Positions 14,802 through 31,406 of a stretch of 36,090 nucleotides of DNA are shown here, in pieces. The stretch lies in the sequence record SRR31156797_208; one strand, 5' to 3'. The position numbers and the translations under genes are program-made. Each line of letters opens with the position of its first letter. The first letter of the stretch is position 1. The notes under the pieces were generated by a model. It searched no databases and was not told the DNA's origin. It worked only from the letters and a program-made list of their open reading frames with translations.

Positions 14802-17800
14802 TTACTCCTCGTCTAAAGTAACCAAACGTGTGCTGCCTCCATGGGCTTTTTCACGCTTACGCTGAACCAGAGCGAAGAAACCCGGAATCATCAAGGTACC
14901 GACAATAAGAACACATAATAAGCCACCAATTAGAGCCACCCCTAAAGAGTTTTGGCTAATGTGTCCCGCACCGCTTGCAAACACCAGTGGGAACATACCG
15001 AGAATGAATGACCATGACGTCATATTCACCGCTCGGAAACGAAGTTTTCCTCCTTCCACTGATGCCTGTTCAATGGGCAATTCTTTTTCCTCTCGCTCGA
15101 CTTTGGCAAACTCGACAATGAGTATTGCATTCTTTGCGGCGAGCGCTATGAGCAGTACCAGACCAATTTGCGCATAAAGGTTTAAGGGCATACCCGCAAT
15201 GTTTAGTGCCAAAAACGCCCCCAGAGTTGCCAGTGGTACCACTAATATTATCGCCAGAGGAATAGTCCAGCTTTCATACTGCGCCACTAAGAATAGATAA
15301 ATAAATATTAATGCCAAAGCGAACGCGTAAATTGCCTGATTTCCAGCTAAAACCTCCTGATACGCCATTCCTGTCCATTCATATTGATACCCTTGCGGCA
15401 GAACTTCAGCCGCTACTCGTTCCATTTCTGCAATGGCATCACCACTTGAATACCCCGGAGCCGGTTGCCCCTGAATGACAGCGCTGCGGTACATGTTGTA
15501 TCGCCATGCGACATCCGGTTCGAATATTTGTTCATAAGTGATCAATGTGCTCAGAGGAACCATATCCCCTGATTTTGAGCGAACGTGAAAACGTTCCAGA
15601 TCTTCCATTCCAGAACGATACTGACTATCAGCCTGCATAGAGACACGGAAATTTTTCCCCCACATAGTGAAGTCGTTGACATAAAGCGAGCCCAAGTTAC
15701 CCTGTAGCGTTTGAAATATTGACGCTAATGGAATACCAAGCTGCTGAGCTTTATCTCTATCGATATCGACATAGTAGTGCGGAACATTCGCTCTGAATGT
15801 ACTAAACGCGTAACCAATCTCAGGCTGGGCATTGGCTGTTTGAATCACATCGGACATGACCATCGCTAAATCGCTTCGGCTGCGCCCTAGTGTATCTTCC
15901 AGAACAAATTCAAAACCTGATGCAGCCCCCATCCCTGGAACAGCCGGTGGTCCCATTGCAAACACGACCGCCTGAGGAATCGATTGAGCAGCTTTGCTAT
16001 TGATTCTTTGAGCAATAGCGTTTGCAGAATGATCACCATCAAAACCGTTTCGTGTGTCCCAATCATGAAGTTTCACAAACACTGAAGCACCATTAGAGGC
16101 AGCAGCACCTGTCATGAAAGCAAATCCGTTGGCAACAGTAACACCATCGACTCCCGGCTCATCTTCCACTAACTTCAGTAACTGTTCGGTCACTTGCTCA
16201 GTACGTGACAGCGATGCTGCATCGGGTAACTGTACATTGACCAACAAAACACCTTTATCTTCCTGAGGAACAAAAGCGCTCGACGTTGTTTTGGCAAAGA
16301 AACTCACAGCCACGACTGCAACCATAAAAAACGTGACTAGCAAAATCGATTTTTTAACCAGAACACCAGCTACTTTTCCATAACGCTCTGTCAGCCGCTC
16401 TAGACCCCGGTTAAAGGTTTTGTACCAGCTTGCCGTATTTCCACCGCCCTGTTTGAGAACCAGAGAACACAGTGCCGGTGCCAGTGTTAACGCGTTAATG
16501 GAAGAAATGACAACTGAGATACAAATCGTCAGCGCGAACTGTCGGTACATAATACCGGTGATACCCGGCAGCATAGCGACAGGAATAAACACGGCTAATA
16601 GTACCAGCGTAGAAGTAATTATCGGCCCTGTGACTTCCTTCATCGCAAGCAGCGTTGCTTTTCTAGGTGACATTGTTGGATCTTTTGCCATTGTGGTATC
16701 GACATTTTCAATAACCAAAATGGCATCATCAACAACGATACCAATCGCCAAAATCAATCCAAACAAAGTTACGGTATTAATCGTAAACCCCGTCGTTTGC
16801 ATAATCGCAAAAGTACCGATGAGAGAGACTGGTATCGCGACAACAGGTATAAACGTCGCTCGCGCATTTCCCAAAAATAGGTATGTCACCACAATAACGA
16901 GTAATATGGCTTCGATTAGCGTTTTGACCACACCTTTGATCGATTCAGCAACAAAAAGCGTCGTATCGTAACTTGTTTCGTAAGCCATCCCCTCTGGGAA
17001 ATTAACACTCAAGTTATCAAGCAAACTCATCACCGCTTCACCACTTTCCAACGCATTAGCATCGGATTGAAGCGACAAAGCAATAATCGAAGCATCTTGA
17101 CCACGGAATTGACCATTGCCATCGTAGAATTTTTTGCCAAGTTCGACTCTGGCAATATCTTTCAAGTAAACCGTCGAACCATCGTTAGTCGCACGAATAA
17201 TCACATGCTCGAACTCATCTACCGATTCCAATCGACCTTTTGTGACCAGATTAAACTGTACTTCCTGAGGATTATGGTAAGGCGCAGAACCGACTCTACC
17301 CGCGGCTACTTGAACGTTTTGTTCAGCCAATGCGCTATAAACATCAGAGGTGGTAATGTTTAGGTTGGCCATTTTTTCTGGATCGAGCCATACACGCATC
17401 GCGTATTCACCCCCACCGATAACATTGACATCACTGATGCCTTTTACACGGGCGAGCTGATCTTTTACATTCAGGTTAATGTAGTTAATTAAAAACTGAT
17501 CATCATACCTTCCATCTGGCGAATAGAAGTTCAACACCATCAATATATCTGGCGAACGCTTTTTCACGGTGACGCCGACCATTCTAACTTCTTGTGGCAA
17601 CTTAGATTCAATCTGAGAAACTCGGTTCTGAACATTCACCTGAGCCATGTCAGGGTCTGTGCCTACATCGAAAGTCACATTTAAGCTATACGAGCCATCA
17701 TTAGCGCTTTTAGAAGACATATAAATCATGTCTTCTACGCCATTGACGGATGTTTCTATCGGGTCTGCAATTGCCTGCTCTACCACTTCTGCACTTGCAC

Positions 17801-17954
17801 CAGAATACACAGCACTGACACTGACCGAAGGTGGACTGATTTGGGGATACTCCGCTACTGGCAAAACAGCCAGGGATATAGCCCCAGCCAAGGTCAGAAT
17901 AATAGAGATGACCAGCGCAAATTTCGGCCGCTGGATAAAGAAACGACTTAACAT
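14802..17954 (-). CDS. RND efflux permease (HAE1 family)
   Basis: 1050 aa; [28 protein letters not shown] proton relay, [19 protein letters not shown]. Confidence 0.96.
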
Positions 17955-17957
17955 TGA

Positions 17958-19079
17958 TTAATCCACCGACTTAGGTTGTTGAATTGAAACGGGTACACCG
18001 TTGCGGACACGCTGTAGCCCCTGAACAATGACAAGCTCATCTATACGGATACCACTGGTCAGAATGATGCCCTGTTCCAGCTGTTTCCCCATCTCAACAT
18101 TACGACGTTCGGCAATATTTCCTTGGGTAACCACCATAACGTAATTGCCTTCCAAATCGGTTTGGACAGCTCGTCTGGGAACGACTATCGCATCTTTCGC
18201 TTGGCTATTTCTCAGCTCGACACGAATATGCTGTCCCGGCAATAATTGCTGGTGTGGATTGGGAATCTGAGCACGAATCGCTAAAGTACCCGTATTCAGG
18301 TCAATACGGTTCCCAAGATAGTCTAATGTGCCTAAATACGGGTATTGAGAGTTATCTTCCAGCAGCACCTGAACTTCAACTTTATCAACGCCCTGATGGC
18401 CGTTGCCTGTCACCTTATCCATACCGAACGTGAGTCGCTCTCGTTCACTGATTCGAACAGCAGCATGAACAGGATCTAAACTGACCAAGGTTGCTAAAAC
18501 CCCTGAAGAGGGAGAAACAAGTTCACCGGTACTGACACTCGTTTGACTGATTCTTCCGTCAAACGGTGCTCTGATTTCAGTATACGAAAGATTGACTTGA
18601 GCCAAGTTAAGTTGCGCTTCAGCCACCTCTACTTGTGCCTGAGCCCCTAAATGGTTGCTGGTCAGTGCGTCAAATTCGGACTGTGAAATACTCCCTCGTG
18701 GTAGCAGTTCTTTACCACGACTATAATCTAACTCTGATTTTTTGAGATTGGCTAATGCTTGTGCCAAAGACGCTTTTGCACTAGCTAGCTGAGCTTGGAA
18801 CGATGACGGTTCAATGGTATATAGCAAATCGCCGGCTTTCACCATCTGGCCTTCGTCAAAATGACGCTGTTTCAGGTAACCTGAAACTTGCGCAGTGATC
18901 GCTAAATCTTCTACCGCTTCAACTCGCCCTATGTACGACTTGCTCTGCTTATGCTCAATAACCTCAACGCTTTGCACAACAACCGTTGGTAAGGACACCG
19001 CTGTTTGCTGAGCGTCTTGCCCACAACCGGATAAAGCTAGAACACCCACTAATACCGATAATTTGGATCTCATTCTCAT
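17958..19079 (-). CDS. RND periplasmic adaptor (membrane fusion lipoprotein)
   Basis: Lipobox LSGC; AQVSGYL, LSYTEIRAPFDGRIS, LLPGQ. Confidence 0.94.
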   Translation of the reverse strand: MRMRSKLSVLVGVLALSGCGQDAQQTAVSLPTVVVQSVEVIEHKQSKSYIGRVEAVEDLAITAQVSGYLKQRHFDEGQMVKAGDLLYTIEPSSFQAQLASAKASLAQALANLKKSELDYSRGKELLPRGSISQSEFDALTSNHLGAQAQVEVAEAQLNLAQVNLSYTEIRAPFDGRISQTSVSTGELVSPSSGVLATLVSLDPVHAAVRISERERLTFGMDKVTGNGHQGVDKVEVQVLLEDNSQYPYLGTLDYLGNRIDLNTGTLAIRAQIPNPHQQLLPGQHIRVELRNSQAKDAIVVPRRAVQTDLEGNYVMVVTQGNIAERRNVEMGKQLEQGIILTSGIRIDELVIVQGLQRVRNGVPVSIQQPKSVD

Positions 19080-19270: not shown

Positions 19271-19300
19271 AAAAAATTAAAGCCTCATACGAGGCTTTAA
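19271..19300 (-). terminator. Intrinsic terminator of the allantoin catabolic operon
   Basis: TTAAAGCCTC-ATAC-GAGGCTTTAA with A6 at 19271-19276 (U-tract on the minus strand). Confidence 0.8.
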
Positions 19301-19310
19301 CATCCAATGG

Positions 19311-20537
19311 CTAATGATCAAATCGACGAATCATCTCAATAAAGCATTCTAAACCGACTTGCACATCCGACGTCGTCACTTGCTCTCTCGGGTTATGACT
19401 GATACCTTTCTCACAACGGATAAACAGCATGCCTATTTTGGTTAACTCCGCGATGACCATAGCATCGTGTCCAGCGCCACTCGGTAGGAAACGGGCCATT
19501 CTGCCAGTTACCGATTCAACCACCGATGCCCACTTGTGCTCTAGCTTAGGATCACATTGAACCGCTTTTGCTTTGTAGATGTTTTCGATATTCAACGTCA
19601 ATTTACGTTTGGTAGAGATCTGTTTTAGTTGCTCCAGCATTTCAAACGTTGCATTTTCAAGTGCCGATTGAGAAGCACTACGAATATCAATGGTGAAACG
19701 AACTTTGCCAGCAATAACATTGATGGCACCAGAGACAATTTCGCATTTACCCACTGTGGCAACGACACCCTGCTCTTTCGCCAACGTTTCGATAGCATTG
19801 ATCATTTCCGCCGTCCCGCACATCGCATCCTGACGCAAATTCACAGGTACCGTGCCAGCATGACCGGCCATGCCCTTCACTTCACATTGAAAACGTTTAG
19901 CACCAGCGATACCGTTTACAACGCCAACGGCTAAATTCTCTGCTTCCAGTACGGGACCCTGCTCAATATGAGCTTCCAGATAACCCAACGTTTCTTCAGG
20001 CTTACGGGCATCACTACCAGCTTTTTCCGGGTCTAAGCCAAAGTCTCTCATCGCCTGTGCCATCGTAATGCCATCAGCATCGGCCACATCCAGCCAATTT
20101 GGGTTGAAACAACCTGCAACAGCACTAGAACCGATTAAAGTGGTATTAAAGCGTGTGCCTTCTTCATCTGCGAATGCCACCACATCAATATGAAATGGAA
20201 AGGTCTCATTTTTCAAAGCATCTAAAGCTTCAATGGCTAAAATCACCCCTAGATTGCCATCATACTTACCAGCGTTGACGACAGTGTCACTGTGTGAACC
20301 CAAAATAAGCGTTGGCTGAGTTGGGTTAGGAGAAACCTTGCGCCCCCACTGATTGCCAACACTGTCTTCCCAGGTTTCTAAGCCAGCTTGTTGCATCCAT
20401 TTTTCAAGTTGATCATGAGCTGCGCGATGCTCTGGTGTGAGATAAGCTCGAGTTAATTCTGTTTTACTTTCGCTGAATGAAGCAAGCACATCCGCTTGCT
20501 CCATGAGTCGTACAGCGCGACTTTCCAGTTCGCTCAT
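19311..20537 (-). CDS. Allantoate amidohydrolase (M20 family, AllC/HpxK-like)
   Basis: GSHSDTV, GKYDG, DEEG, HIEQGP, GHAGT, SGAGHDA, GISHNP; start placed at ATG 20537 after AGGAG; substrate inferred from context. Confidence 0.88.
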   Translation of the reverse strand: MSELESRAVRLMEQADVLASFSESKTELTRAYLTPEHRAAHDQLEKWMQQAGLETWEDSVGNQWGRKVSPNPTQPTLILGSHSDTVVNAGKYDGNLGVILAIEALDALKNETFPFHIDVVAFADEEGTRFNTTLIGSSAVAGCFNPNWLDVADADGITMAQAMRDFGLDPEKAGSDARKPEETLGYLEAHIEQGPVLEAENLAVGVVNGIAGAKRFQCEVKGMAGHAGTVPVNLRQDAMCGTAEMINAIETLAKEQGVVATVGKCEIVSGAINVIAGKVRFTIDIRSASQSALENATFEMLEQLKQISTKRKLTLNIENIYKAKAVQCDPKLEHKWASVVESVTGRMARFLPSGAGHDAMVIAELTKIGMLFIRCEKGISHNPREQVTTSDVQVGLECFIEMIRRFDH

Positions 20538-20547
20538 ATCACTCCTA

Positions 20548-21780
20548 CTATTGATAAAATTCCATTGCTGCCGCAACTGCCTGGCCTGGATTAACTGCGG
20601 CTTTGTGTTTGATCAACAAAGCTTCCAGTGCAGCCAACGTTGAAAGCACACACTCTTGGCGCGCGTTGTAGCCCATGGTACCAATACGCCAAATTTTGCC
20701 ATGCAGTGGTCCAAACGATGTACCAATTTCTATGCCAAAACGATTTAGTAGCTCAAGGCGCACAGTATCGCCGTTTACGTTCGCTGGAATGTAAACGCCT
20801 ACGACGTTGTTCATTTTGTGCTGTTGGTTTCCAAACAATTCAAGTCCCATGGCACGTAAACCTGCTGCCATTGCATCCCCAGCTTGTTTGTGGCGTGCAA
20901 TCACGTTCTCAGGACCTTCTTCTAGGAAGATTCGAGCACACTCACGTGCTGCGTAAAGCATACTTGTTGCTTCAGTATGGTGATTTAAACGCTCTGGGCC
21001 CCAATAGTCCATGATCATAGACAAATCAAAGTAGTTTGACTGAATCATTGCGTCTTCACCTTCGGTATGGTGATCCGCACGAATACCCGCTTCGATATGT
21101 TTACGACGATTAATGACTTCAGCACAGCGGTCACTCAAAGTAATTGGCGCTGAGCCTGAAGGACCACCCAAGCACTTCTGTAGTCCGGCAGAAACCGCAT
21201 CTAGGTGCCATTCATCCACTTTTAAATCGTTACCAGCGATTGAAGCGGTGGCATCACAGTAGAAAAGCACACCATGACGCTGACAAATCTCACCCATTTC
21301 TTTCAATGGCTGATTCATTGTGGTGGACGTATCCCCTTGAACTGTTGCCAGTAGCTTTGGCTGGAAAGATTTAATCGCCGCTTCCACTTTTTCAGCAGGA
21401 CATACTTCGCCCCACTCAATATCAATGGTTTTTACTACCGCACCCACACGCTGTGCGATTTCGCATAACAGGTGACCAAAACGACCAATCACCGGAACCA
21501 ACACTTTGTCGCCCGGTTGCAGTACAGAGACCAGTACCGCTTCAATACCTGAGCGCGCCGTACCATCCACCAGCATCGTTTGCTGGTTTTGCGTGAAAAA
21601 CACACCGCGATACAGAGACTGAACCTGATTCATGTATCCGGTCATTACCGGATCATATTGACCAATCAAAGATTGTGAAATCGCCTGATGTACACGCGGA
21701 TACGCATTAATTGGCCCAGGCCCCATTAAAAGACGTTGTGGTGGGTTAAGTGTTTCAAATAATTCTTTTTGGGCTGTCAT
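20548..21780 (-). CDS. pucG: (S)-ureidoglycine-glyoxylate transaminase (PucG/HpxJ-like, class V PLP)
   Basis: RLLMGPGP, DATAS, PLP-Lys in GLQKC, SNYFDL, NHHTEAT, EIGTSFGPL, WRIGTMG; start at ATG 21780 overlapping the upstream TGA. Confidence 0.88.
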   Translation of the reverse strand: MTAQKELFETLNPPQRLLMGPGPINAYPRVHQAISQSLIGQYDPVMTGYMNQVQSLYRGVFFTQNQQTMLVDGTARSGIEAVLVSVLQPGDKVLVPVIGRFGHLLCEIAQRVGAVVKTIDIEWGEVCPAEKVEAAIKSFQPKLLATVQGDTSTTMNQPLKEMGEICQRHGVLFYCDATASIAGNDLKVDEWHLDAVSAGLQKCLGGPSGSAPITLSDRCAEVINRRKHIEAGIRADHHTEGEDAMIQSNYFDLSMIMDYWGPERLNHHTEATSMLYAARECARIFLEEGPENVIARHKQAGDAMAAGLRAMGLELFGNQQHKMNNVVGVYIPANVNGDTVRLELLNRFGIEIGTSFGPLHGKIWRIGTMGYNARQECVLSTLAALEALLIKHKAAVNPGQAVAAAMEFYQ

Positions 21781-23339
21781 TTTATACTCCATGTACCATC
21801 GCTTCGAGGATCACTGGTTGCTGAGGCTTTTCCCTGCGTATCGATGATGATTGCACCAGCGTGTCCCATTAATTCATTATTATCAGCCACGTACGTTACA
21901 TCGTGACCGAGTTGTTTGAGTTGTTCTCCGTACTGTTTATACAGAGATTCTTCAAGTCTTAAGTTGTTTGTGGTGTCGCCCCATGTCCGTCCAAGTAGCC
22001 AACGAGGAAGTGACACAGATTCACTCAGAGAGAATCCCTGATAGTGGTAACGGCTGAATAAACAGGCTTGAGTTTGTGGCTGACCTTCTCCACCCATGGT
22101 TCCATAAACCATACGTCGCCCATCGGCTAAATCAGCATAGGCAGGGTTAAGCGTGTGGAAAGGCTTCTTACCGGCCGCCAGCACATTATGATGATTCGCA
22201 TCGAGAGAAAAACTCTTAGAACGAATGTTCCAAAGAATACCAGTACTTGGCAGTACAACACCTGAACCAAATTCCCAATAGATACTTTGAATAAAGCTCA
22301 CCATAGTGCCGTACTGGTCAGTGGCGCCCATCCAAATTGTGTCGCCCGGCTCTGCCTGATGTGGCCATTCAAGCGCTTGCTCAGCGGAAACGTTATTTGC
22401 ACAATGGCTAATCACAGACTCTTTCAGCCACTCTTGTAATGGCTGAGTTAAATATTCTTCGTCACACACTTCTTTATCGCGGATGATAAATGCTTGCTTA
22501 GTGGCTTCAACCAACAGGTGGATATGATCAACTCCACCTTTAGCCTGAGAAGCTAATCGATCGTAAATAGCCAGAATAAGAAGAGACGCGACACCTTGAG
22601 TTGGTGCGCCGAAGTTATAGAGCTGACCTTTTGATGTTTCTACCGTCAACGGTGACATCACTTTCGCCTGATGACGTTTAAAATCTTCCAGCTCAATCGG
22701 GCTACCGACTTCTTGTAACTCTTTCGCCGCGCTTTGTGCAATTTCACCACGGTAGAAATCATCTAAGCCATTTTCGGCCAGCGTAAACAATGTATTGGCT
22801 AGCGCTTCGTTAACAACGGTATCGCCGACTTTTAATGTCTTACCGTCGTTTAAGAAGTTTTCTGCAAACGCTTTTAAACTTCCCAATCGCTCATAGGTTT
22901 TTTCACTGGCATTGACTAAGCTTTGGGTCACTTCAACGCCTTGTTTCGCCGCTTGAATAGCAGGTTCTAACAGGGAATTTAAACTTAGTTCAGTAGAATC
23001 AATTTCCAGTGCCTTTTGCCATGCGGAGACAGTGCCCGCCATGGTGATAGCGGCTTCTCCACCAAACTCGGGTAGCTCATCGCTTTGGGCGCGATATTTT
23101 TCGATATCAACGTTCATCGCCGCCGCACCACAACCATCAATAGCGACCGGCGTTTGATCTTTCTTGGCAATCAACCAGAAACTATCACCACCAATACTGT
23201 TCATATGCGGATATTGCACAGCGATCATCGCAGCCGCCGCAACCATGGCTTCACTGGCTGTGCCTCCCGCGTCTAAAATCTTTTGCCCCGCTTCTGTGGC
23301 CTTATAGTGTGGAGCGGTAAATGCGGTTTGGTATTTCAT
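21777..23339 (-). CDS. hpxW: Gamma-glutamyltransferase-like Ntn hydrolase, oxamate amidohydrolase (HpxW-like)
   Basis: YPHMNSIGGD, nucleophile Thr in GDTIW, SFIQSIYWEFGSG, KPFHTLNP, GTMGGEGQPQT, SDPRSDG; no signal peptide; purine-catabolism context. Confidence 0.8.
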   Translation of the reverse strand: MKYQTAFTAPHYKATEAGQKILDAGGTASEAMVAAAAMIAVQYPHMNSIGGDSFWLIAKKDQTPVAIDGCGAAAMNVDIEKYRAQSDELPEFGGEAAITMAGTVSAWQKALEIDSTELSLNSLLEPAIQAAKQGVEVTQSLVNASEKTYERLGSLKAFAENFLNDGKTLKVGDTVVNEALANTLFTLAENGLDDFYRGEIAQSAAKELQEVGSPIELEDFKRHQAKVMSPLTVETSKGQLYNFGAPTQGVASLLILAIYDRLASQAKGGVDHIHLLVEATKQAFIIRDKEVCDEEYLTQPLQEWLKESVISHCANNVSAEQALEWPHQAEPGDTIWMGATDQYGTMVSFIQSIYWEFGSGVVLPSTGILWNIRSKSFSLDANHHNVLAAGKKPFHTLNPAYADLADGRRMVYGTMGGEGQPQTQACLFSRYHYQGFSLSESVSLPRWLLGRTWGDTTNNLRLEESLYKQYGEQLKQLGHDVTYVADNNELMGHAGAIIIDTQGKASATSDPRSDGTWSIK

Positions 23340-24520
23340 TTAACTTCTCCTTGAATAAGCAGTTCGCCCGTCGAAAATAAATGCGGTTCGCTATCAGACA
23401 GCCCCAACAATGACATGCCACAAGGGCCTTCAGACAAAGCTTGCATTGGAAGATGCAGTTGAGGGAAACCACACAACCCAGCGATACTGGTTAGCCCCAT
23501 CAACTGCGTTCGATAAGTGGCTAATTTGTCGCCAGAAAGTGTTAGTGCTGGCGGACCAGATGGCGTAGTTGGAACGGCCCAAAGTAAGGAATTCTGTTCC
23601 AGATGCTGCTCAACGATATTTTTAAATTCAGACTGTTTATCAACCGCTTTCTGGTAGTCTTCATCAGTAATGGTTTGTGACCATTTCACTCTCTCGAGAA
23701 TCGCAGGGTCTAGGCTTTCACCGTGTTGCTCTAGCCATACACCATGCTTTTCAATAATGTCATGACCTTGAATCGTGCGGAACAGCAAGCTCAAATCACT
23801 GAGCTCCCAGCCATTCTCTTTCAGGTAGTCACCCCGTACGATCTCTATGTTTGCCTGATCGCACCAAGATATAAACCGAGCCAACCGCTCTTCAGTTAAA
23901 AGCTGAGCGCACTGGTTATCAAGGTAAAGTTGGGTGGCAGAAGTTTCACTTGAGTTTGAGTTTGAAAGAACACGCCATACCTGACGTAATAGAGGCAGTT
24001 CCCGAGCGAAGAGTCCGGCTGTATCAAACGTTTTAGAAAGCTCAAAGCAGTGACTTAGATCTAAAGAACCAACCGTTGGGCGCAGTCCAAACAATCCACA
24101 GTAACTGGCCGGAACTCGCACTGAGCCTCCGGTATCGGTACCAATAGAAAAGTCACATTCTTTGTTGGCTACCGCTACAGCGCTGCCACTGGAAGATCCG
24201 CCGGGGATACACTCTGGAGCCACTGGGTTAACAGGTGTTCCATAATGAATATTTTGACCATTTAAGCTGTAAGCCAACTCGTCGGTTTGAACACGACCAA
24301 CACACTCGGCTCCATTGGCTAACAGTGCAGAAATAAGCGGAGAGCTAACAGCCGCACAGGCGTGGGTTTCAAGCCATTTCGGATTACCTGCTCCGGTTTT
24401 ATAGCCTTCTACATCGAAAAGATCTTTAAATACAAACTGATTACCACTCAAGGCACCTTCAGCAGTCGCTGACAAATGCTCAGGACCTTGAGAGCAATAA
24501 ACTCGACTATCCTTAGTCAT
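23336..24520 (-). CDS. Amidase-signature family amidase (short, AMI1-like type)
   Basis: Catalytic Lys in FKDLFD, GGSSSGS, GTDTGGSVRVPAS; ATGA overlap with the hpxW-like gene. Confidence 0.9.
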   Translation of the reverse strand: MTKDSRVYCSQGPEHLSATAEGALSGNQFVFKDLFDVEGYKTGAGNPKWLETHACAAVSSPLISALLANGAECVGRVQTDELAYSLNGQNIHYGTPVNPVAPECIPGGSSSGSAVAVANKECDFSIGTDTGGSVRVPASYCGLFGLRPTVGSLDLSHCFELSKTFDTAGLFARELPLLRQVWRVLSNSNSSETSATQLYLDNQCAQLLTEERLARFISWCDQANIEIVRGDYLKENGWELSDLSLLFRTIQGHDIIEKHGVWLEQHGESLDPAILERVKWSQTITDEDYQKAVDKQSEFKNIVEQHLEQNSLLWAVPTTPSGPPALTLSGDKLATYRTQLMGLTSIAGLCGFPQLHLPMQALSEGPCGMSLLGLSDSEPHLFSTGELLIQGEVK

Positions 24521-24552
24521 TTCACTTCCTTTTAGAGTTTTAATTATTGTTA

Positions 24553-25548
24553 TTAATTGGCAACCACTGCCCCTTCGGTCTGGCGAGCGTATCGGTTAGC
24601 CAATACTGCGCAGTAGAAAATTTGAATTGGGTGATAAAGCATGATTGGCAGCAAAATCATCCCTAGGTTCGGGTCTGTACCAAAGATAACTTTTGCCATT
24701 GGAATACCTGCCGCCAACGTTTTCTTTGTACCACAGAAAACCGCAGCAACTTCATCTGGCAAATTAAACTTGACTCGACGCGCACCCCATTGGATAAAGT
24801 GCACCATGAAAAGCAAAACAATAAGACAGATAGCAACGGAAGCTGCAAGCAAGCCAATAGAGAATTCACTCCAAATGCCATTTTCCACAGAATCACAGAA
24901 AGCGTTGTAGACAATAAGAAGAATCACATATTTATCCACTTTACCGACCATGCTCTTGTGTTTGGTGGTCCATTCAATCAGGTAAGGACGCAAAATTTGC
25001 CCCACAACCATAGGCAGCAGAAGCAATTTAGCAATTGAAATCACAGACGCCATTAAGTCCAGCTCTACGCCTTCCACACCCATGAACAATTGAATAAGGA
25101 AAGGAGTAATGAATACGCCAATAATGCTTGATAACGATGCATTGAAAATCGCACCTGGAACATTGCCTTTGCCCACACTGGTCATCGCAACCGATGATGA
25201 AATTGTGCTTGGTAGAACGAGCAAGTAACAGAAGCCAAAAGCCAATGCCGCAGGCATATAAGCGATAAAGGCTTCACCAAAGATAACCCATAGCAATGGG
25301 TAAGCAACAAAGGTCGCGGCCTGAATATAAAGGTGAAGACGCCAGTTGGTCATCCCCGATTTGATCGCCTGAGGAGAAAGTCCTAAGCCATGTAGAAAGA
25401 AAACAATTGCGACACCGATACCGGTTAGCACGTCGAGGTGAATGATTCCCCCCGATTTTCCCAAGTCAGAGGTGACCGTCGCTAAACCAATTGCGACAAC
25501 CATTCCGACTAAAAACCATTCTTTCTTAAGTTTTCCAATTACACTCAT
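24553..25548 (-). CDS. Bile acid:sodium symporter (SBF-like, YfeH-type) transporter
   Basis: FFLHGLGL, LPSTISSSV, GNVPGAIFNA, FCGTKKTLAAGIP, MLYHPIQ; about ten hydrophobic segments. Confidence 0.9.
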   Translation of the reverse strand: MSVIGKLKKEWFLVGMVVAIGLATVTSDLGKSGGIIHLDVLTGIGVAIVFFLHGLGLSPQAIKSGMTNWRLHLYIQAATFVAYPLLWVIFGEAFIAYMPAALAFGFCYLLVLPSTISSSVAMTSVGKGNVPGAIFNASLSSIIGVFITPFLIQLFMGVEGVELDLMASVISIAKLLLLPMVVGQILRPYLIEWTTKHKSMVGKVDKYVILLIVYNAFCDSVENGIWSEFSIGLLAASVAICLIVLLFMVHFIQWGARRVKFNLPDEVAAVFCGTKKTLAAGIPMAKVIFGTDPNLGMILLPIMLYHPIQIFYCAVLANRYARQTEGAVVAN

Positions 25549-25598
25549 CTTGCTTTTTATTCTCTTGATTTAGAACGCCATTAACGAACTATGATTAA

Positions 25599-25619
25599 AT
25601 TTTAACAAATTGTATACAG
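25599..25619 (-). promoter_or_regulatory. Putative internal sigma70 promoter (extended -10) with overlapping GntR-type operator
   Basis: The minus strand reads CTGTATACAA-TT-TG-T-TAAAAT: TGnTAAAAT next to a 9/10 copy of TTGTATACAA (25610-25619). Confidence 0.55.
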
Positions 25620-25664
25620 AAAAAGCGAAAAGTAGCGGCAGCCAGTACAGGCTAGCCACCGCCA
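25620..25664 (-). terminator. Terminator/attenuator hairpin after the NCS1 gene
   Basis: Minus strand TGGCGGTGGCTAG-CCTGTA-CTGGCTGCCGCTA: 13-bp stem with four G-U pairs, then CTTTTCGCTTTTT. Confidence 0.65.
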
Positions 25665-25670
25665 AAAAGG

Positions 25671-27113
25671 TTAAACTTCGCTATTTGAAACGGCCGGAAC
25701 TTGAGCCCAAGCTTCTTGTGGTTGCATCAGATATCGATATACAACAGCAGCGACGCCCCCACCAATAAACAGTGCATAGTTAGCAAGCTCTGCGACCCAA
25801 AATGTCGCTATAACAGAGAGCACACTTGCAAACAACAGCGCATAAACACTCTTCATGTTCACACCATTACGATACCAGTACAGTCCTTGTTTAGACTCGG
25901 TATACAAAGACGGAACATCAATATGACCTTTCTTGATAATGTAGTAGTCAACAATAATGATGCCGTATAGCGGTCCAATCATTGCTGCCAACACATCTAC
26001 TGTATAATGAATCACTTCCGGATTATTAAACAGGTTCCAAGGCGTCAACAATACAGAACCAAACGCCGCAATGAACCCACCCGCTTTAAAGCTGATCTTT
26101 TGTGGAGATACGTTTGAAAAGTCAAACGCCGGTGCGACAAAGTTGGCAACGATATTAATACCCACAGTTGCGAAGATGAATGTCATCGCGCCCAAAACAG
26201 TAATGAGTCCAGAATCTAAACGTTTCACTGTTTCTACCGGGTCGGTGATCATCTCACCAAATACTGGAATCGAAGCCGATACGATAACCACACTGAACAC
26301 TGAAAAGAGCAGAAAATTCAGTGGCAGACCCAACAAGTTACCTAACTTCAGTTTGCTGTAGCTACTGCAGTAACGAGAAAAGTCACTAAAGTTCAATGTT
26401 GGTCCAGCAAAATATCCAGCAACCAATGCAATCGCAATAAACATCTGAACAACAATATCCCACCCTTCAAGTTTTTGAGACGCAAGATTAAAGCTAATGT
26501 TCTCCCACCCGGCTAGATTGATCATGTAAATACACAATGCAAACATCGCAATGTAGATAGCTGGGCCTGACCAGTCGATAACTTTACGAATCATGTCCAT
26601 ACCAAACATGAACACAATCCCCTGAAGAATCCACATTGACACAAAGCCTACCCATCCCAAGTATGACAGTCCGACAAAAGACGATTCAGACAGACTTTCC
26701 ATACCAGGGAAGAAATACAACAGTAAGATAATGAATGAGCTTGATGCTAGATAGGTTTGAATTCCATACCACACGACCGCAATCAAACCGCGAATCACTG
26801 CTGGGATATTGGCTCCAAACACACCAAAGGCCATACGTGCGATTACAGGGAACGGGGCGCCCGCTTTCTGCCCTGGTTTGCCCATTAAGTTTGCAAACAA
26901 GAGCACAATACAAATACCCACTAGCAAACTGATAAATACCTGGATACCATTTAGACCCAGTGCAAATAAACTGGCGGCAAACACATAGCCACCAACACTA
27001 TGAACATCAGACATCCAAAAAGCGAAAATACTGTACCATCCCCAATTTTGTTCTTTGTCTGGTTGTAAATCTTCGTTACTCAAACGGGCACTTACTGGCA
27101 ATTCCTTTGTCAT
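25671..27113 (-). CDS. NCS1 nucleobase:cation symporter (probable allantoin permease)
   Basis: NEDL, FWMSDVHSVGGY, WYGIQT, LNFSDFSRY, INIVANFV, TPWNL; start placed at ATG 27113 after AGGGA. Confidence 0.9.
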   Translation of the reverse strand: MTKELPVSARLSNEDLQPDKEQNWGWYSIFAFWMSDVHSVGGYVFAASLFALGLNGIQVFISLLVGICIVLLFANLMGKPGQKAGAPFPVIARMAFGVFGANIPAVIRGLIAVVWYGIQTYLASSSFIILLLYFFPGMESLSESSFVGLSYLGWVGFVSMWILQGIVFMFGMDMIRKVIDWSGPAIYIAMFALCIYMINLAGWENISFNLASQKLEGWDIVVQMFIAIALVAGYFAGPTLNFSDFSRYCSSYSKLKLGNLLGLPLNFLLFSVFSVVIVSASIPVFGEMITDPVETVKRLDSGLITVLGAMTFIFATVGINIVANFVAPAFDFSNVSPQKISFKAGGFIAAFGSVLLTPWNLFNNPEVIHYTVDVLAAMIGPLYGIIIVDYYIIKKGHIDVPSLYTESKQGLYWYRNGVNMKSVYALLFASVLSVIATFWVAELANYALFIGGGVAAVVYRYLMQPQEAWAQVPAVSNSEV

Positions 27114-27132
27114 TTTAATCATCCCTACATAA

Positions 27133-27144
27133 ATTGTATACAAT
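27133..27144. promoter_or_regulatory. GntR-type operator palindrome
   Basis: ATTGTATACAAT, a perfect 12-bp palindrome at the predicted start site of the sigma54 promoter. Confidence 0.7.
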
Positions 27145-27150
27145 CATAGA

Positions 27151-27167
27151 TACAAATTGTATGCCAA
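27151..27167 (-). promoter_or_regulatory. Putative sigma54 (-24/-12) promoter of the NCS1 gene
   Basis: Minus strand TTGGCATACAATTTGTA = GG-N10-GT (GT instead of the canonical GC), with NtrC-like sites upstream. Confidence 0.6.
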
Positions 27168-27229
27168 CCTGATAAGTTACCGATTTACCAATAAATCACG
27201 TATATAAATGCCTCCACAACGAGTATTAA

Positions 27230-27266
27230 TGCACCATTTGAGTTCACCGTGTTACATATTAGTGCA
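27230..27266. promoter_or_regulatory. Tandem NtrC-like enhancer sites
   Basis: TGCACCATTTGAGTTCA (27230-27246) and TGTTACATATTAGTGCA (27250-27266) versus TGCACCA-N3-TGGTGCA; centres 20 bp apart. Confidence 0.65.
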
Positions 27267-27359
27267 TCAAATTTAGCGAATTGACTAACAAATTACGACA
27301 TTATTAGTATTGTAAGGGACAAATAATGGAATCATAATGGTATACATATTGCACGGTAG

Positions 27360-27373
27360 CTTTGTATACAAAG
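27360..27373. promoter_or_regulatory. GntR-type operator palindrome upstream of the GntR gene (autoregulation)
   Basis: CTTTGTATACAAAG, perfect 14 bp; weaker copy TGGTATACAT at 27338-27347. Confidence 0.7.
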
Positions 27374-27395
27374 AACAATAAAAAAGAGAGTTCAC

Positions 27396-28067
27396 ATGTC
27401 GAATGACGATATCATTTATCAAAGAATGCTAAAGGCGATCGTTGAACATCAACTTCCACCCGGCGAGCGTTTACCAGAAGATAAGCTTTCTGAAGCTTTT
27501 GGTGTAAGCCGAACGGGTATTCGTAAAGTTTTGCAACGTTTAGCATTAGAGCGCTTTGTAGTCATCCAACCTAACAAAGGCGCACAGGTTAATAGACCAA
27601 GCCGCAGAGAGGCTGAAGAAGTTTGGGACAGCCGTATTTTATTAGAGCCTCAATTGATCCCAGATATCGCTGCAAATTGGAATAACAAAATCGCAAAACA
27701 ATTTCGTTCTATGGTTGAACTGGAGAAACAAGCTGATCTCGACGGAAACATGGCTGAAGCTATTCAGCTGACTGCTAAGTTTCATTATGAATTGGCGCGA
27801 TCAGGCAACAACCTAGTACTTGCTGAATTTATCGAACAACTCTGTTATCGCTCCTCACTAGTGATTGCGGCTTACGGTACAAAAGAGAGTGTAAGCTGTG
27901 ATTGTGGCGACCATATGGAACTGGTGGACCTTTTAACTGATAACAAAGTTGAACAAGCGCAAAAATGGATGCGTCACCACCTCGAACATATTAAAGCATC
28001 AATATCCCTGAGTAATAAACAAGATGGGCATGTTGATTTTGGTCAGTTGTTCAAACAGGCCGTCTAA
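27396..28067 (+). CDS. GntR-family regulator (FCD/FadR subfamily)
   Basis: LPPGERLPEDKLSEAFGVSRTGIRKVL HTH, PNKGA; FH...GN and HHLEH FCD motifs. Confidence 0.94.
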   Translation: MSNDDIIYQRMLKAIVEHQLPPGERLPEDKLSEAFGVSRTGIRKVLQRLALERFVVIQPNKGAQVNRPSRREAEEVWDSRILLEPQLIPDIAANWNNKIAKQFRSMVELEKQADLDGNMAEAIQLTAKFHYELARSGNNLVLAEFIEQLCYRSSLVIAAYGTKESVSCDCGDHMELVDLLTDNKVEQAQKWMRHHLEHIKASISLSNKQDGHVDFGQLFKQAV

Positions 28068-28081
28068 CAAATTTAAATAAG

Positions 28082-28140
28082 TTGAATGTCCTCATGCCCT
28101 GCCAATTTCAATTGGTTTGGGCTGGAAATAAGACGTTCAA
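28082..28140 (+). other. Nested stem-loop in the gntR-puuE spacer
   Basis: TTGAATGTC/GACGTTCAA outer stem (one G-U), GCCC/GGGC, and GCCAAT-TTCA-ATTGGT inner hairpin. Confidence 0.5.
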
Positions 28141-28170
28141 AACAATCCGTCAGTTTACAAGGAAATAAAC

Positions 28171-29100
28171 ATGGAAGTATCAAACCCAAGGGACTATATC
28201 GGCTACGGCCGTGACAATGTTCCTGACGCTCAATGGCCAAACAACGCAAAAATCGCTGTGCAATTCGTTCTGAACTATGAAGAAGGAGGGGAAAACTGTG
28301 TTCTGCACGGAGATTCTCATTCAGAAATCTTCCTTTCAGAAATAGCAGGCGCTGAACCCTATCCAGAACGCCATATGAGCATGGAATCCCTTTATGAATA
28401 CGGCTCTAGAGCGGGTGTTTGGCGGATACTAAATGAATTCAAACGTCGCGAACTGCCTCTAACCGTATTTGGCGTTGCTACTGCGCTTCAACGCAACCCT
28501 GAAGTGACCAAAGCCATTATTGAAGACGGTCATGAAATTGCTTGCCACGGTTTGAAATGGATTCACTATCAGCACATGCCAATTAAGCAAGAGCGTGAAC
28601 ATATGCGTCAGGCTTTGGACATTATCGAAAATTTAACGGGTAAGCGACCAATCGGCTGGTATACCGGTCGTGATTCGCCCAACACTCGAGAACTGGTCGC
28701 TGAGCAAAGCGGACTTTTATACGATTCAGACTACTACGGTGATGATCTCCCCTTCTGGACTCAGGTCGAAGACAAGAAGCATCCGGATGAGACACGACCA
28801 CATTTGATCGTACCTTACACACTGGATACGAATGACATGCGTTTTTCTTCTCCGTATGGATTTAGCCATGGCGAAGAGTTCTTCCAGTACTTGAAAGAGA
28901 ATTTCGATTGTTTGTATGAAGAAGGCAAAGAAAAACCGAAAATGATGTCCGTCGGTTTACACTGCCGAGTCATAGGTAAGCCTAGCCGCTTTATGGCACT
29001 TAAGAAATTCCTCGATTACATTCAATCTCATGAAGGGGTTTGGGTGGCAACGCGTGAACAGATCGCTCGTCACTGGATTGAGCACCATCCCCCTAAATAA
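28171..29100 (+). CDS. puuE: Metal-independent allantoinase PuuE (polysaccharide deacetylase fold)
   Basis: PRD.IGYG, VLNYEEGGEN, MESLYEYGSRAG, CHGLKW, GWYTGRDSPNT, PYTLDTNDMRF, GLHCR, IARHW; AAGGA RBS. Confidence 0.95.
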   Translation: MEVSNPRDYIGYGRDNVPDAQWPNNAKIAVQFVLNYEEGGENCVLHGDSHSEIFLSEIAGAEPYPERHMSMESLYEYGSRAGVWRILNEFKRRELPLTVFGVATALQRNPEVTKAIIEDGHEIACHGLKWIHYQHMPIKQEREHMRQALDIIENLTGKRPIGWYTGRDSPNTRELVAEQSGLLYDSDYYGDDLPFWTQVEDKKHPDETRPHLIVPYTLDTNDMRFSSPYGFSHGEEFFQYLKENFDCLYEEGKEKPKMMSVGLHCRVIGKPSRFMALKKFLDYIQSHEGVWVATREQIARHWIEHHPPK

Positions 29101-29159: not shown

Positions 29160-29705
29160 TTAAGACTGTGAATCTTCGTAATCTTCGACGCCCACACCAT
29201 CAATCAAATAGCCGGCCTGCCCTAAATCGGATTCGACCATTTCTACATTGAGTTGACCAACGATGTAAACCACGTCCCAAAGCCCCTGCAACGGTACTCC
29301 TTTATCAAACTTTACATATAAGATTTGATTGGGTGGCGGTGGCGGTACATGAATACATGCCCCAAAATACGGCACTAATAGCAGTTCTGTGACCACCTCA
29401 TCATCCCCTTCCAAAGGGATAACAAAGCCCGGAATACGAACCTGCTTACCATCGAGGTCGGTTCGAAACCCACCCGCTATATTTTGCGGTGGCGTATCAC
29501 TTTCATGATCAATCGGCACCGGACTGCGTGGCAAAATACCATTACGCTCACTTTCTGGGATCAAGTCTCTCCAATCTAAAGTAATGACCTCAGTTTGAGA
29601 TTTGACTGACTCTTCTTTAGCAAAAGCAACCGTAGTGTTTCCGACTAACAGCGGCAATCCGGCCAATGCAACAAGCCCCGCCCTTTTTAATAAGTTCGTT
29701 TTCAT
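29160..29705 (-). CDS. DUF3299-domain exported protein (ZrgD-like)
   Basis: Signal peptide; LDWRDLIP, VRIPGFVIPLE, LLVPYFGACIHVPPPPPNQI. Confidence 0.88.
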   Translation of the reverse strand: MKTNLLKRAGLVALAGLPLLVGNTTVAFAKEESVKSQTEVITLDWRDLIPESERNGILPRSPVPIDHESDTPPQNIAGGFRTDLDGKQVRIPGFVIPLEGDDEVVTELLLVPYFGACIHVPPPPPNQILYVKFDKGVPLQGLWDVVYIVGQLNVEMVESDLGQAGYLIDGVGVEDYEDSQS

Positions 29706-29779
29706 AAGTAGTAATTTCAGATAGAAACATCATTTATTGTGACTACCAAATCTATCTCTCACATAAGACAGCAATATTA

Positions 29780-29823
29780 CAATCATAAAAACTTCACGAA
29801 CCGGTAACGCGTTATTCATAAAT
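29780..29823 (+). promoter_or_regulatory. Degenerate Pho-box-like array
   Basis: TCAT/TCAC/TAAC/TCAT at 29783, 29794, 29805 and 29816 (exact 11-bp period) upstream of the phosphatase. Confidence 0.4.
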
Positions 29824-29915
29824 TTATTAGGTAATTGAACTAGGTTAAGCCCTTGAACAATAAGCGCAAGTGACCTCAGCATATGGATAATCGAATAAAC
29901 AATTGGAGCCTATTC

Positions 29916-31406
29916 GTGAATAGTAAAAAACTTCTATTAGTCAGTGGTATTTTGGCAGCCCTAGCAGGTTGCTCTACGCAAGGTCAGACAGCGGGCGTGG
30001 ATGCCCCTCAGAAAGACGATATTTGGTTTAAACAAGCACAAGACGATATTGCAAAAGCAAAAGCGAACTTGCCTATCGATAAGCCAGCTAAAAACGTTAT
30101 CTTGTTTGTGGGTGACGGAATGAGCGTAGGTACAATTACCGCTGCACGTATATTTGAAGGTCAACGACGTGGATTAATGGGTGAAGAGTACAAGCTCAAC
30201 ATGGAAAGCATGCCAAATATGGCTCTAGCAAAAACCTACAACACCAATGCGCAAACACCAGACTCAGCCGGCACCGCTTCCGCGATGGTTACGGGTGTTA
30301 AAACCAAACAAGGCGTAATCAGTGTTGATGACAACGTTCAACGTGGTTTCTGTAACACAGTAAAAGACAATGAAGCTAAAACAGCATGGGAAATGGCCGC
30401 TGAAAAAGGTATGTCAGTCGGTGTTGTTTCTTCAGCTCGTATTACTCACGCTACCCCAGCAACCACTTACGCTCACTCAGCAGACCGTAACTGGGAAAAT
30501 GATGCTTCTATGCCGAACATCGCTAAAAACCAAGGCTGTGTAGACATAGCGCAACAGCTTATTAGCTTTAACGACGGCAAAGGTATGGATGTGGTATTCG
30601 GTGGTGGCCGCCGTGAATTCCTTCCTGTTGACGTTGTCGACCCAGAAGGTAAAAAAGGTAAGCGTAAAGACGGTCAGAATCTGGTTTCAAAATGGCAAGC
30701 TCAACACCCAGATGGCCAGTATGTTTATGACCAAAACGGTTTCGACAGCATCCCTGCTGATGCAAAAAAAGTATTTGGTTTATTTGAAAGCAGCCACATG
30801 AAGTATGAAGCTGACCGCCGCGACGGTGAACCTTCTCTCGCTGATATGACTTCGAAAGCGATTGATGTTCTCTCTCAAAACGAAGACGGATTTGTGTTAA
30901 TGGTTGAAGCTGGTCGTATTGACCACGCTCACCACGCCGGTAATGCCGCGCGTGCGCTATGGGACACGATTGCTTATGACGATGCGATCAAAGCAGCACT
31001 AGACAAAACCAATCCTGAAGAGACGTTAATCATTGTGACTGCGGACCATGCACACACATTGATCTCTAATGGATATGCAGAACGCGGCAACCCTATCTTG
31101 GGCTTATCGAAATCTAACGGTAAACTGAGCGTTGATGCTTACGGTAAAAACTACACCACATTAAGCTACGGTAACGGCCCAGGTGCAGTGGCAAAAGGTG
31201 GTGAAGAACGACCAAACCCGACTCAAGAAGAAGTGTTAGGCCTAGATTATCTGCAGCAGTCTCTAATCAAAATGGATTCAGAAACTCACTCAGGTGAAGA
31301 CGTGGCGATTTTTGCTCGTGGTCCTCAAGCTTACCTTTTCCAAGGTGCTGTTGAGCAAAACTACATTTTCCACGTGATGAATGAAGCGCTAGGCTTAGCA
31401 AAATAA
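29916..31406 (+). CDS. Alkaline phosphatase (PhoA family), predicted lipoprotein
   Basis: GDGM, catalytic Ser in PDSAGT, THATPA, VEAGRIDHAHH, TADH, HSGEDV; lipobox LAGC; GTG 29916 after GGAG preferred over ATG 29883. Confidence 0.94.
   Translation: MNSKKLLLVSGILAALAGCSTQGQTAGVDAPQKDDIWFKQAQDDIAKAKANLPIDKPAKNVILFVGDGMSVGTITAARIFEGQRRGLMGEEYKLNMESMPNMALAKTYNTNAQTPDSAGTASAMVTGVKTKQGVISVDDNVQRGFCNTVKDNEAKTAWEMAAEKGMSVGVVSSARITHATPATTYAHSADRNWENDASMPNIAKNQGCVDIAQQLISFNDGKGMDVVFGGGRREFLPVDVVDPEGKKGKRKDGQNLVSKWQAQHPDGQYVYDQNGFDSIPADAKKVFGLFESSHMKYEADRRDGEPSLADMTSKAIDVLSQNEDGFVLMVEAGRIDHAHHAGNAARALWDTIAYDDAIKAALDKTNPEETLIIVTADHAHTLISNGYAERGNPILGLSKSNGKLSVDAYGKNYTTLSYGNGPGAVAKGGEERPNPTQEEVLGLDYLQQSLIKMDSETHSGEDVAIFARGPQAYLFQGAVEQNYIFHVMNEALGLAK

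Follow-up and report, generated by a model that had tools for sequence, protein, structure and literature searches.

A predicted allantoin-to-oxalate nitrogen-scavenging cluster in a Vibrio-like organism, with a short amidase as candidate enzyme of the oxalurate step

In the HPX branch of purine catabolism in Klebsiella, the hpxWXYZ operon (PMC3560190) encodes HpxY, an oxalurate amidohydrolase (PMC12625717), and HpxW, an oxamate amidohydrolase credited to Hicks and Ealick 2016 (PMC5270733). The same position in the pathway, from oxalurate to oxamate, is occupied in E. coli by AllFGH, whose reaction is phosphorolytic, with the energy kept as carbamoyl phosphate (PMC11326118). Here we describe a cluster of eight genes at positions 19311-29100 of a 36,090-nucleotide stretch of DNA from sequence record SRR31156797_208 (the whole of this stretch is referred to as the window). 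The cluster probably encodes a pathway of the Klebsiella HPX type for scavenging nitrogen from allantoin, in which a short amidase would take the oxalurate step and oxalate would be the end product.

The cluster shares with Klebsiella HPX the enzymes HpxK/AllC, HpxJ and HpxW, as well as the predicted end products. On sequence grounds it is a variant of that branch, with HpxW, HpxJ and HpxK kept and no protein reaching the cut-offs for HpxX, HpxY or HpxZ; where Klebsiella has an AtzE-family HpxY, an AtzG-like HpxX and an AtzH-like HpxZ, the cluster has one 394-amino-acid PRK08310-like amidase instead. The allantoinase is PuuE in the cluster and HpxB in Klebsiella, the regulator is a GntR protein in the window and RpiR-like in Psychromonas, and, unlike in Klebsiella HPX, a transporter gene lies within the operon. 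Six of the genes are on the minus strand, transcribed in the order NCS1 permease, SBF-like transporter, amidase, GGT-family hydrolase, class-V aminotransferase and M20 amidohydrolase, and the GntR and puuE genes are divergent from these on the plus strand:

19311..20537, minus strand: allC/hpxK, allantoate amidohydrolase (NF006775, 535.4 against a cut-off of 479)
20548..21780, minus strand: hpxJ/pucG-like ureidoglycine aminotransferase, class V (PF00266)
21777..23339, minus strand: hpxW-like GGT-family N-terminal-nucleophile hydrolase, predicted oxamate amidohydrolase (PF01019, 412 bits)
23336..24520, minus strand: short amidase-signature enzyme of 394 amino acids, PRK08310-like, predicted oxalurate amidohydrolase (NF006169)
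24553..25548, minus strand: SBF-like membrane transporter (PF13593, 338.8 bits)
25671..27143, minus strand: NCS1-family permease, probable allantoin importer (PF02133, 281 bits)
27396..28067, plus strand: GntR/FCD-family regulator (PF00392 and PF07729)
28171..29100, plus strand: puuE, metal-independent allantoinase (TIGR03212, 499.1 against a cut-off of 424.6)

A preliminary description of the window had listed these same eight genes, and its inventory holds at these coordinates. It had also reported ATGA joins between the amidase and hpxW genes and between the hpxW and pucG-like genes. The first is present at 23339-23336 (amidase stop and hpxW start), and the second, at 21780-21777, depends on an hpxJ start at ATG 21780; the longest hpxJ open reading frame (ORF) starts 12 nt farther upstream, at ATG 21792, and the overlap with hpxW is then 16 nt. 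The allC gene likely starts at ATG 20537, behind AGGAG and ten bases past the hpxJ stop; its longest ORF starts at TTG 20576, and the match to the hidden Markov model (HMM) begins at residue 14 of that ORF. The description's further statement that the cluster lacks allE, allA, allD, urate-oxidation genes, HpxX and HpxZ agrees with our scan, in which no ORF of the window matched the AllE, AllA, AllD, urate-oxidation, AtzG-like or AtzH-like families. The gaps within the cluster are too short for a gene of 60 amino acids, and in 27143-27396 the largest ORF has 45.

The predicted steps of PuuE, AllC, HpxJ and HpxW rest on curated models or on close similarity to solved, characterised enzymes. PuuE clears an equivalog cut-off, and AllC/HpxK the cut-off of its family model. 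The GGT-like protein is colinear with chains A and B of 5HFT (E 2e-68 and 8e-67), which we take to be the structure from the HpxW work of Hicks and Ealick 2016, and its Thr334 aligns to residue 1 of the 5HFT small chain, the autoprocessing nucleophile. The HpxJ-like protein was matched by no curated ureidoglycine-aminotransferase HMM; in a phmmer comparison with the PDB it matched 3NNK over residues 12-413 (E 6e-182) and 3ISL (E 3e-128), which are the solved Klebsiella ureidoglycine aminotransferase and B. subtilis PucG, respectively (PDB).

The amidase clears NF006169/PRK08310 alone and falls far under the AtzE, allophanate-hydrolase and GatA models; for the AtzE family, to which HpxY belongs, the scores are 159.9 with TIGR02715 (cut-off 425.75) and 173.5 with NF006631 (cut-off 461). 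The AtzE match is confined to the first half of the protein, and residue 24 of the query aligns with AtzE residue 66, the amidase having about 45 N-terminal residues fewer. K32, S109 and S133 are invariant across 20 aligned amidase sequences, down to 39% identity, and from the motifs GGSS and GGS-x-R we take these residues to be a Lys/cis-Ser/Ser triad. An AlphaFold model (predicted local distance difference test 91.6, predicted TM-score 0.92) has as its closest structural neighbour malonamidase E2, with a query TM-score (TMq) of 0.85, a target TM-score (TMt) of 0.81 and 20% identity, followed by AtzE (TMq 0.83) and by a Thermus amidase, GatA and allophanate hydrolase, the last with a TMq of 0.80-0.82. 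Malonamidase E2, AtzE and allophanate hydrolase all act on small carboxylated amides or ureides, and the last of these cleaves the terminal amide of a carboxylated ureide, leaving an unstable N-carboxy product.

Each of these enzymes offers a partial parallel. The 1-carboxybiuret hydrolase AtzE-AtzG, with AtzH, of Pseudomonas sp. ADP (PDB 6C62) belongs to the same amidase-signature family with the same triad, and its likeness extends to the chemistry predicted here, in which a terminal ureido amide adjacent to a carbonyl is deaminated and CO2 is then lost; the window amidase differs in its shorter N-terminus, in scores of 160-174 bits against cut-offs of 426-461, and in that no small partner was found in the window. 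Malonamidase E2 of Bradyrhizobium japonicum (PDB 1OCL and mutants) is likewise a short stand-alone amidase for a small carboxylated amide, with another substrate, low identity and no link to purine genes. The amidase domain of allophanate hydrolase (AtzF, DUR1,2; PDB 4CP8, 4GYS) is structurally similar, but that enzyme has an extra C-terminal domain, and the window amidase scores far under the cut-offs of its models. In the literature searched no short amidase is described at the oxalurate step; mention of one in the primary HpxJ/HpxW papers or in the review 'Purine catabolism by enterobacteria' is possible.

We propose the following route. Allantoin would be imported by the NCS1 permease and converted by PuuE to allantoate, from which AllC would take off one ureido group, giving ureidoglycine, CO2 and NH3. 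HpxJ would then turn ureidoglycine and a 2-oxo acid into oxalurate and an amino acid. The short amidase would deaminate the terminal ureido amide of oxalurate, an assignment that we infer from context, fusion, module exchange and family chemistry, and the resulting N-carboxy-oxamate would lose CO2 to give oxamate, with context pointing to a spontaneous decarboxylation. Finally, the HpxW-like hydrolase would convert oxamate to oxalate and NH3, and the oxalate would not be metabolised further but exported, perhaps by the SBF-like transporter. The net yield per allantoin would be three NH3, one amino acid, two CO2 and one oxalate. The earlier view that all allantoin nitrogen is recovered needs one qualification: three of the four nitrogens would be set free as NH3, and the fourth would leave as the amino acid made through HpxJ, whose acceptor is not encoded in the cluster.

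Genome-wide searches were made in genomes of relatives, not in the window's own, in two sets: a Vibrio metagenome-assembled genome (MAG) with four Psychromonas (G001-G005), and five more distant short-amidase genomes (G621, G633, G421, G780 and G464). AtzG-like HpxX (PF13318), AtzH-like HpxZ (PF11533), AllG of AllFGH (PF06545), AllE (TIGR03214) and AllA (PF04115) were each over cut-off in 0/5 genomes of the first set and 0/5 of the second, and the AtzE family (TIGR02715) in 0/5 of G001-G005, the sole set searched for it. Among the controls, G250 gave an AtzH-like match of 179 bits and, beside an amidase, an AtzG-like match of 23.3 bits, below the cut-off of 24; G104 and G309 were positive for AllG, G309 also for AllA, and E. 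coli for AllE and AllA. With AtzG-like, AtzH-like and AllG proteins over cut-off in none of the ten genomes and the AtzE family in none of five, the clustered amidase is therefore the only known consumer there of the oxalurate made by HpxJ. The AllFGH proteins, moreover, are unrelated to the amidase, and the E. coli ALL pathway, as defined by AllE and AllA, is found in none of the ten. The preliminary description had called the oxalurate step non-standard and had asked whether hpxX, hpxZ or allE, or a dependence on allA, might lie elsewhere in the genome; the ten related genomes lend comparative support to the first statement and contain no such match over cut-off. Its urea-free route might have been explained by a missing urease, an explanation that we dropped: urease is over cut-off in 3/5 of G001-G005, the closest relative included (G002 has the cluster and no urease match), and such a route is thus not forced by urease loss.

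The arrangement of the cluster is conserved. A scan with the amidase gave 15 loci, one in a Vibrio sp. MAG (L001) and 14 in Psychromonas. The L001 proteins are 90-98% identical to those of the window in full synteny, including the flank on the puuE side, which bears out the 'Vibrio-like' host. In the Psychromonas loci the amidase is 61-65% and HpxJ 85-87% identical, and Vibrio diazotrophicus has an amidase with 76% identity. The core SBF-amidase-hpxW-hpxJ-allC is whole in 11 of the 15 loci, so that the arrangement is not one of chance; three others are truncated where their contigs stop, and L015 is degraded. The GntR gene is syntenic in L001, L005, L007 and L011, and further genes of Psychromonas loci encode an RpiR-like regulator, an ABC transporter of the amino-acid type and a hydantoin-racemase-like protein, with HpxO in L007 (score 604, cut-off 500). 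At a distance of about 25 kb from its cluster, the Vibrio MAG carries a BMP-type ABC transporter, xdhABC, OHCU decarboxylase, HIU hydrolase, guanine deaminase and a PuuD-type urate oxidase. Since xdhABC, urate oxidase, HIU hydrolase and OHCU decarboxylase are all among these, the lineage is probably able to go from purines down to allantoin. The cluster had been called self-contained, and this is so from allantoin downwards, whereas the upstream purine and urate genes are some 25 kb off in the close relative.

In the degraded locus L015 of Psychromonas G003, the amidase and allC matches are truncated, hpxJ is undetected and hpxW has an internal TGA; among the many broken genes of G003 are also OHCU decarboxylase, with a TGA, and the urease alpha subunit, split into three. 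Either the pathway is decaying there or the assembly is rich in frameshifts.

Across a family sample of Vibrionaceae the amidase (at least 50% identity) is present in 31/301 genomes and an HpxJ-like protein in 49/301, and in all 31 amidase-bearing genomes hpxJ is nearby on the same contig. In G791 the order is amidase-hpxJ-allC without hpxW between, and a 59% HpxW-like gene is on another contig. Thirteen of the 301 genomes have an HpxJ-like gene with no amidase match. That these use another oxalurate module was considered and dropped, for in four fetched loci (L081, L082, L083 and L085) the HpxJ-like aminotransferase, which shares 76-79% identity with that of the window, has other conserved neighbours and no allC beside it; the first three are from three of the 13 amidase-less genomes and L085 is a second hpxJ copy in the amidase carrier G938. 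The HpxJ-like gene of these four loci is probably a paralogue with another role.

To place the amidase in its family we surveyed a phylum sample, in which NF006169 is over cut-off in 31/401 genomes, and examined 36 loci. In five of these, hpxW, hpxJ and allC adjoin the amidase (L060, L062, L065 and L066, at 41-42% identity, and L069 from Psychromonas, at 64% and on a contig as long as that of L005). One (L067) has adjacent hpxJ, allC, puuE, GntR and NCS1 genes with hpxW elsewhere, three (L044, L058 and L059) have an hpxW-like gene as the only such neighbour, and the remaining 27 have none of these. A quick maximum-likelihood tree of 55 rows (with L002, L006, L022, L069 and L073 left out as partial or duplicate) places all 22 short amidases with an hpxJ/allC context in one group, separate from the core PRK08310 clade (SH-aLRT 96) and from the AtzE-like outgroups.

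The more distant clusters read RpiR, amidase, hpxW, TauE/SafE exporter, hpxJ, allC and a small cupin, and the amidase-hpxW-TauE-hpxJ-allC linkage is retained in four genomes at 41-42% amidase identity. Amidase matches in five further Vibrionaceae genomes fall within open frames of 704-758 amino acids. Two of these genomes (L077 and L078), with one found through hpxJ (L084), were seen to have PuuE::amidase fusions, with Polysacc_deac_1 N-terminal and Amidase C-terminal, on the minus strand at L077:11992-14238 (748 amino acids), L078:12055-14235 (726) and L084:13200-15353 (717), followed in all three by hpxW, TauE, hpxJ and allC. Yet another form is at L058 (6865-9103 and 12365-14800), where the genes for GntR, an AtzH-like protein (194 bits) and a short amidase of PRK08310 are neighbours, with hpxW and TauE about 3 kb off and no hpxJ or allC within the 17 kb fetched. 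An AtzH-like gene is also paired with an AtzE-type amidase in locus L023, and in Pseudomonas sp. ADP the product of AtzE is the substrate of AtzH; the L058 pairing therefore indicates AtzE-like chemistry for the short amidase.

What follows allC in these clusters is variable. In TauE-type clusters there is an ORF of about 121-126 amino acids 3' of allC (L060:2411-2776, L065:2375-2740, L062:2635-3003 and L066:14051-14431); it resembles cupins weakly in L060 and L065 and matches nothing in Pfam in L062 and L066. At L004:15272-16123 the same spot is taken by a DUF5718 protein of 283 amino acids, with ORFs of like length in L003 and L013, and at L080:235-732 by an RraA-like protein.

The neighbourhoods of HpxW itself were viewed in an even sample of the class, where 20/401 genomes encode an HpxW-like protein at 41-51% identity and an E-value of at most 1e-80; the other 19 loci were fetched, and 66 ORFs from 9 of the 19 were scanned with Pfam. 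In four of the 19, hpxJ and/or allC are near the HpxW-like gene. Locus L023 has the classical HPX form, in the order OHCU decarboxylase, AtzH-like, PuuE, HpxJ, AllC, HpxW and AtzE-like amidase. In L022 and L027 the HpxW-like gene is with AllG (and AllH too in L027), AllC and HpxJ, a set that would send oxalurate via carbamoyl phosphate and then still hydrolyse oxamate to oxalate. Because HpxW-like genes elsewhere adjoin HpxY/HpxZ or AllG/AllH, the oxalurate-to-oxamate step is, as far as gene neighbourhoods can tell, a slot for interchangeable modules. A different association is seen at L037:9001-15275, where the neighbours of the HpxW-like gene are an amidase of full length, XdhC and a ring-opening amidohydrolase of the AtzD/TrzD type. 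The same hydrolase subfamily may serve there in a pathway resembling that of cyanuric acid or of barbiturates.

There are several observations that weigh against an allantoin pathway with the short amidase at the oxalurate step. The amidase passes NF006169 narrowly, at 399.5 against 391 where core members score 440-557, and PRK08310 membership by itself tells us little because 27 of the 36 family loci, mostly core members, are without purine genes nearby. The purine-linked clade is weakly supported, with an SH-aLRT of 83 in the quick tree. The absence of AtzG, AtzH, AtzE and AllG was seen in the genomes of relatives only, not in that of the window. Isocitrate lyase is over cut-off in one of five relatives (the Vibrio MAG) and not in the four cluster-bearing Psychromonas genomes G002-G005, which bears on the supply of glyoxylate for HpxJ, or on its true amino acceptor, in Psychromonas. 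The link to HpxW is not universal either: a draft genome (G942) has amidase-hpxJ-allC and no HpxW-like match at E 1e-40, and in G464 (L067) the hpxW-like gene (51%) is 1.5 Mb from the amidase cluster. Lastly, 15 of the 19 HpxW-like loci (proteins at 41-48% identity) have neither hpxJ nor allC nearby, and for this reason the substrate range of the HpxW-like subfamily may be wider than oxamate.

Some of these observations are taken up by other explanations. The two hydrolases could have swapped roles, with the amidase acting on oxamate, as malonamidase E2 does on malonamate, and the GGT-like protein on oxalurate or some other amide. That the best structural neighbour of the amidase model is a short enzyme for a small carboxy-amide is in keeping with this (TMq 0.85), as are the varied contexts of HpxW-like proteins. 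It nonetheless seems unlikely, for the GGT-like protein aligns colinearly with a solved oxamate amidohydrolase, 5HFT, the short amidase of L058 has an AtzH-like partner gene in the manner of AtzE-type enzymes, and identity to malonamidase is just 20%. HpxW in L022 and L027, moreover, accompanies AllG/AllH, which yield oxamate (PMC11326118). We consider it decidedly unlikely that the amidase belongs at an earlier step, where it would strip the remaining ureido group of ureidoglycine, ureidoglycolate or allantoate and so make glyoxylate for HpxJ. Such a role would accommodate the PuuE::amidase fusion in three genomes, the isocitrate lyase result in four of five relatives and the distant PuuE-like gene upstream of PRK08310 amidases in L059 and L063, but it would leave the oxalurate made by HpxJ without a consumer and HpxW without a source of oxamate in genomes where AtzG-like, AtzH-like and AllG proteins (0/10) and the AtzE family (0/5) are not over cut-off. 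Fusions, for their part, link enzymes of one pathway and do not require consecutive steps.

Cleavage of the inner imide bond is a further alternative, by which the amidase would split oxalurate to urea and oxalate and urease would recover the nitrogen. Urease in three of five relatives, the closest included, is in line with this; HpxW, however, would be superfluous, yet its gene is adjacent, translationally overlapped and conserved beside the amidase, and G002 has the cluster with no urease match. AtzE and allophanate hydrolase both deaminate terminal amides, which also counts against cleavage of the inner bond, and we regard it as very improbable. It is scarcely to be expected that the cluster degrades a different ureide or hydantoin rather than allantoin: PuuE and AllC clear their equivalog cut-offs, and in relatives the cluster is linked with urate genes, HpxO and a gene resembling allantoin racemase, which together stand against the one point in its favour, that the NCS1 permease scores under cut-off with TIGR00800 (289.8) and with the allantoin permease model (271).

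The allantoin pathway with the amidase at the oxalurate step raises the question of what becomes of oxalate. Oxalyl-CoA decarboxylase and bicupin oxalate decarboxylase are each over cut-off in 0/10 genomes, and since neither of these two oxalate-degrading enzymes was found in any of the ten, the searches suggest that oxalate is a dead end and is excreted. Every operon form has a transporter gene inside it, SBF-like in Vibrio and Psychromonas, where it lies upstream of the amidase, and TauE/SafE elsewhere, which looks like a non-orthologous transporter swap. The TauE/SafE exporter, of 272 amino acids, is between hpxW and hpxJ (L060:5523-6341, L066:10753-11571, L065:5293-6111 and L077:9510-10328). 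From this context the SBF-like transporter could tentatively be an oxalate exporter. A more ambitious form of our proposal, to which we give somewhat less than an even chance, is that a partner-free short amidase acting as oxalurate amidohydrolase arose a single time as PRK08310 diversified and took the place of HpxXYZ or AllFGH in Gammaproteobacteria of the sea, with the SBF-like or TauE protein a dedicated oxalate exporter and one oxalate excreted per allantoin. On that reading, Vibrio and Psychromonas living on purine-derived nitrogen would be a biological source of marine oxalate that has gone unrecognised.

The non-coding features of the cluster bear on its expression and are as follows, the palindromes having no strand:

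19276..19301, minus strand: terminator-like hairpin and T run closing the operon 3' of allC (intrinsic type, 11 pairs, T tail)
25610..25619: operator-like palindrome TTGTATACAG with 1 mismatch, between the NCS1 and SBF-like genes (palindrome search)
25633..25664, minus strand: terminator-like hairpin 3' of the NCS1 gene (13 pairs, 7 GC)
27134..27143: TTGTATACAA, a perfect palindrome at the NCS1 promoter and candidate operator for GntR (palindrome search and sequence reading)
27362..27371: another TTGTATACAA without mismatch, upstream of the GntR gene, also a candidate operator (palindrome search and sequence reading)

The hairpin 3' of the NCS1 gene suggests that the minus strand comprises two transcription units. 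The window has two perfect copies of TTGTATACAA, both within the divergent promoter region, and when up to one mismatch is permitted there are five matches against 1.9 expected, a number reached in 4 of 100 shuffles. It is thus a candidate GntR operator, and GntR is probably a repressor of the cluster, acting at both divergent promoters through these candidate sites. The true start of the NCS1 gene is probably ATG 27113 or 27122.

The rest of the window consists of unrelated genes, among them those for an RND pump, SbmA, ACR3, a TRAP transporter and KDG metabolism. The flank on the allC side (14802-19079) holds the RND efflux pump, permease and adaptor, and that on the puuE side (29160-31406) a DUF3299 protein and an alkaline phosphatase; the latter is the sole flank common to the window and the Vibrio MAG. 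Contigs of 150-640 nt, 90-97% alike, were found in two seawater RNA libraries (X15 and X16) and one wastewater library (X17) and span parts of the allC, hpxJ, hpxW, amidase, SBF-like, NCS1 and GntR genes. They are from relatives, may be DNA carry-over and hold no strand or operon information, and no conclusion was drawn from them.

A system of this kind is not new, and the advance is a modest one, of concern to specialists in purine catabolism. If the assignment is true, it would give a function to a clade now labelled just 'amidase', or wrongly 'biuret hydrolase' or 'GatA', and for the conversion of oxalurate to oxamate there would be three or more unrelated solutions, with HpxW as the constant element. 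It would also offer a comparison within the amidase-signature family, in that AtzE-type enzymes need a small partner protein and the short amidase apparently does not. The prediction is that about one in ten Vibrionaceae species (31/301 sampled), together with many Psychromonas, can use allantoin for nitrogen only and excrete oxalate in doing so.

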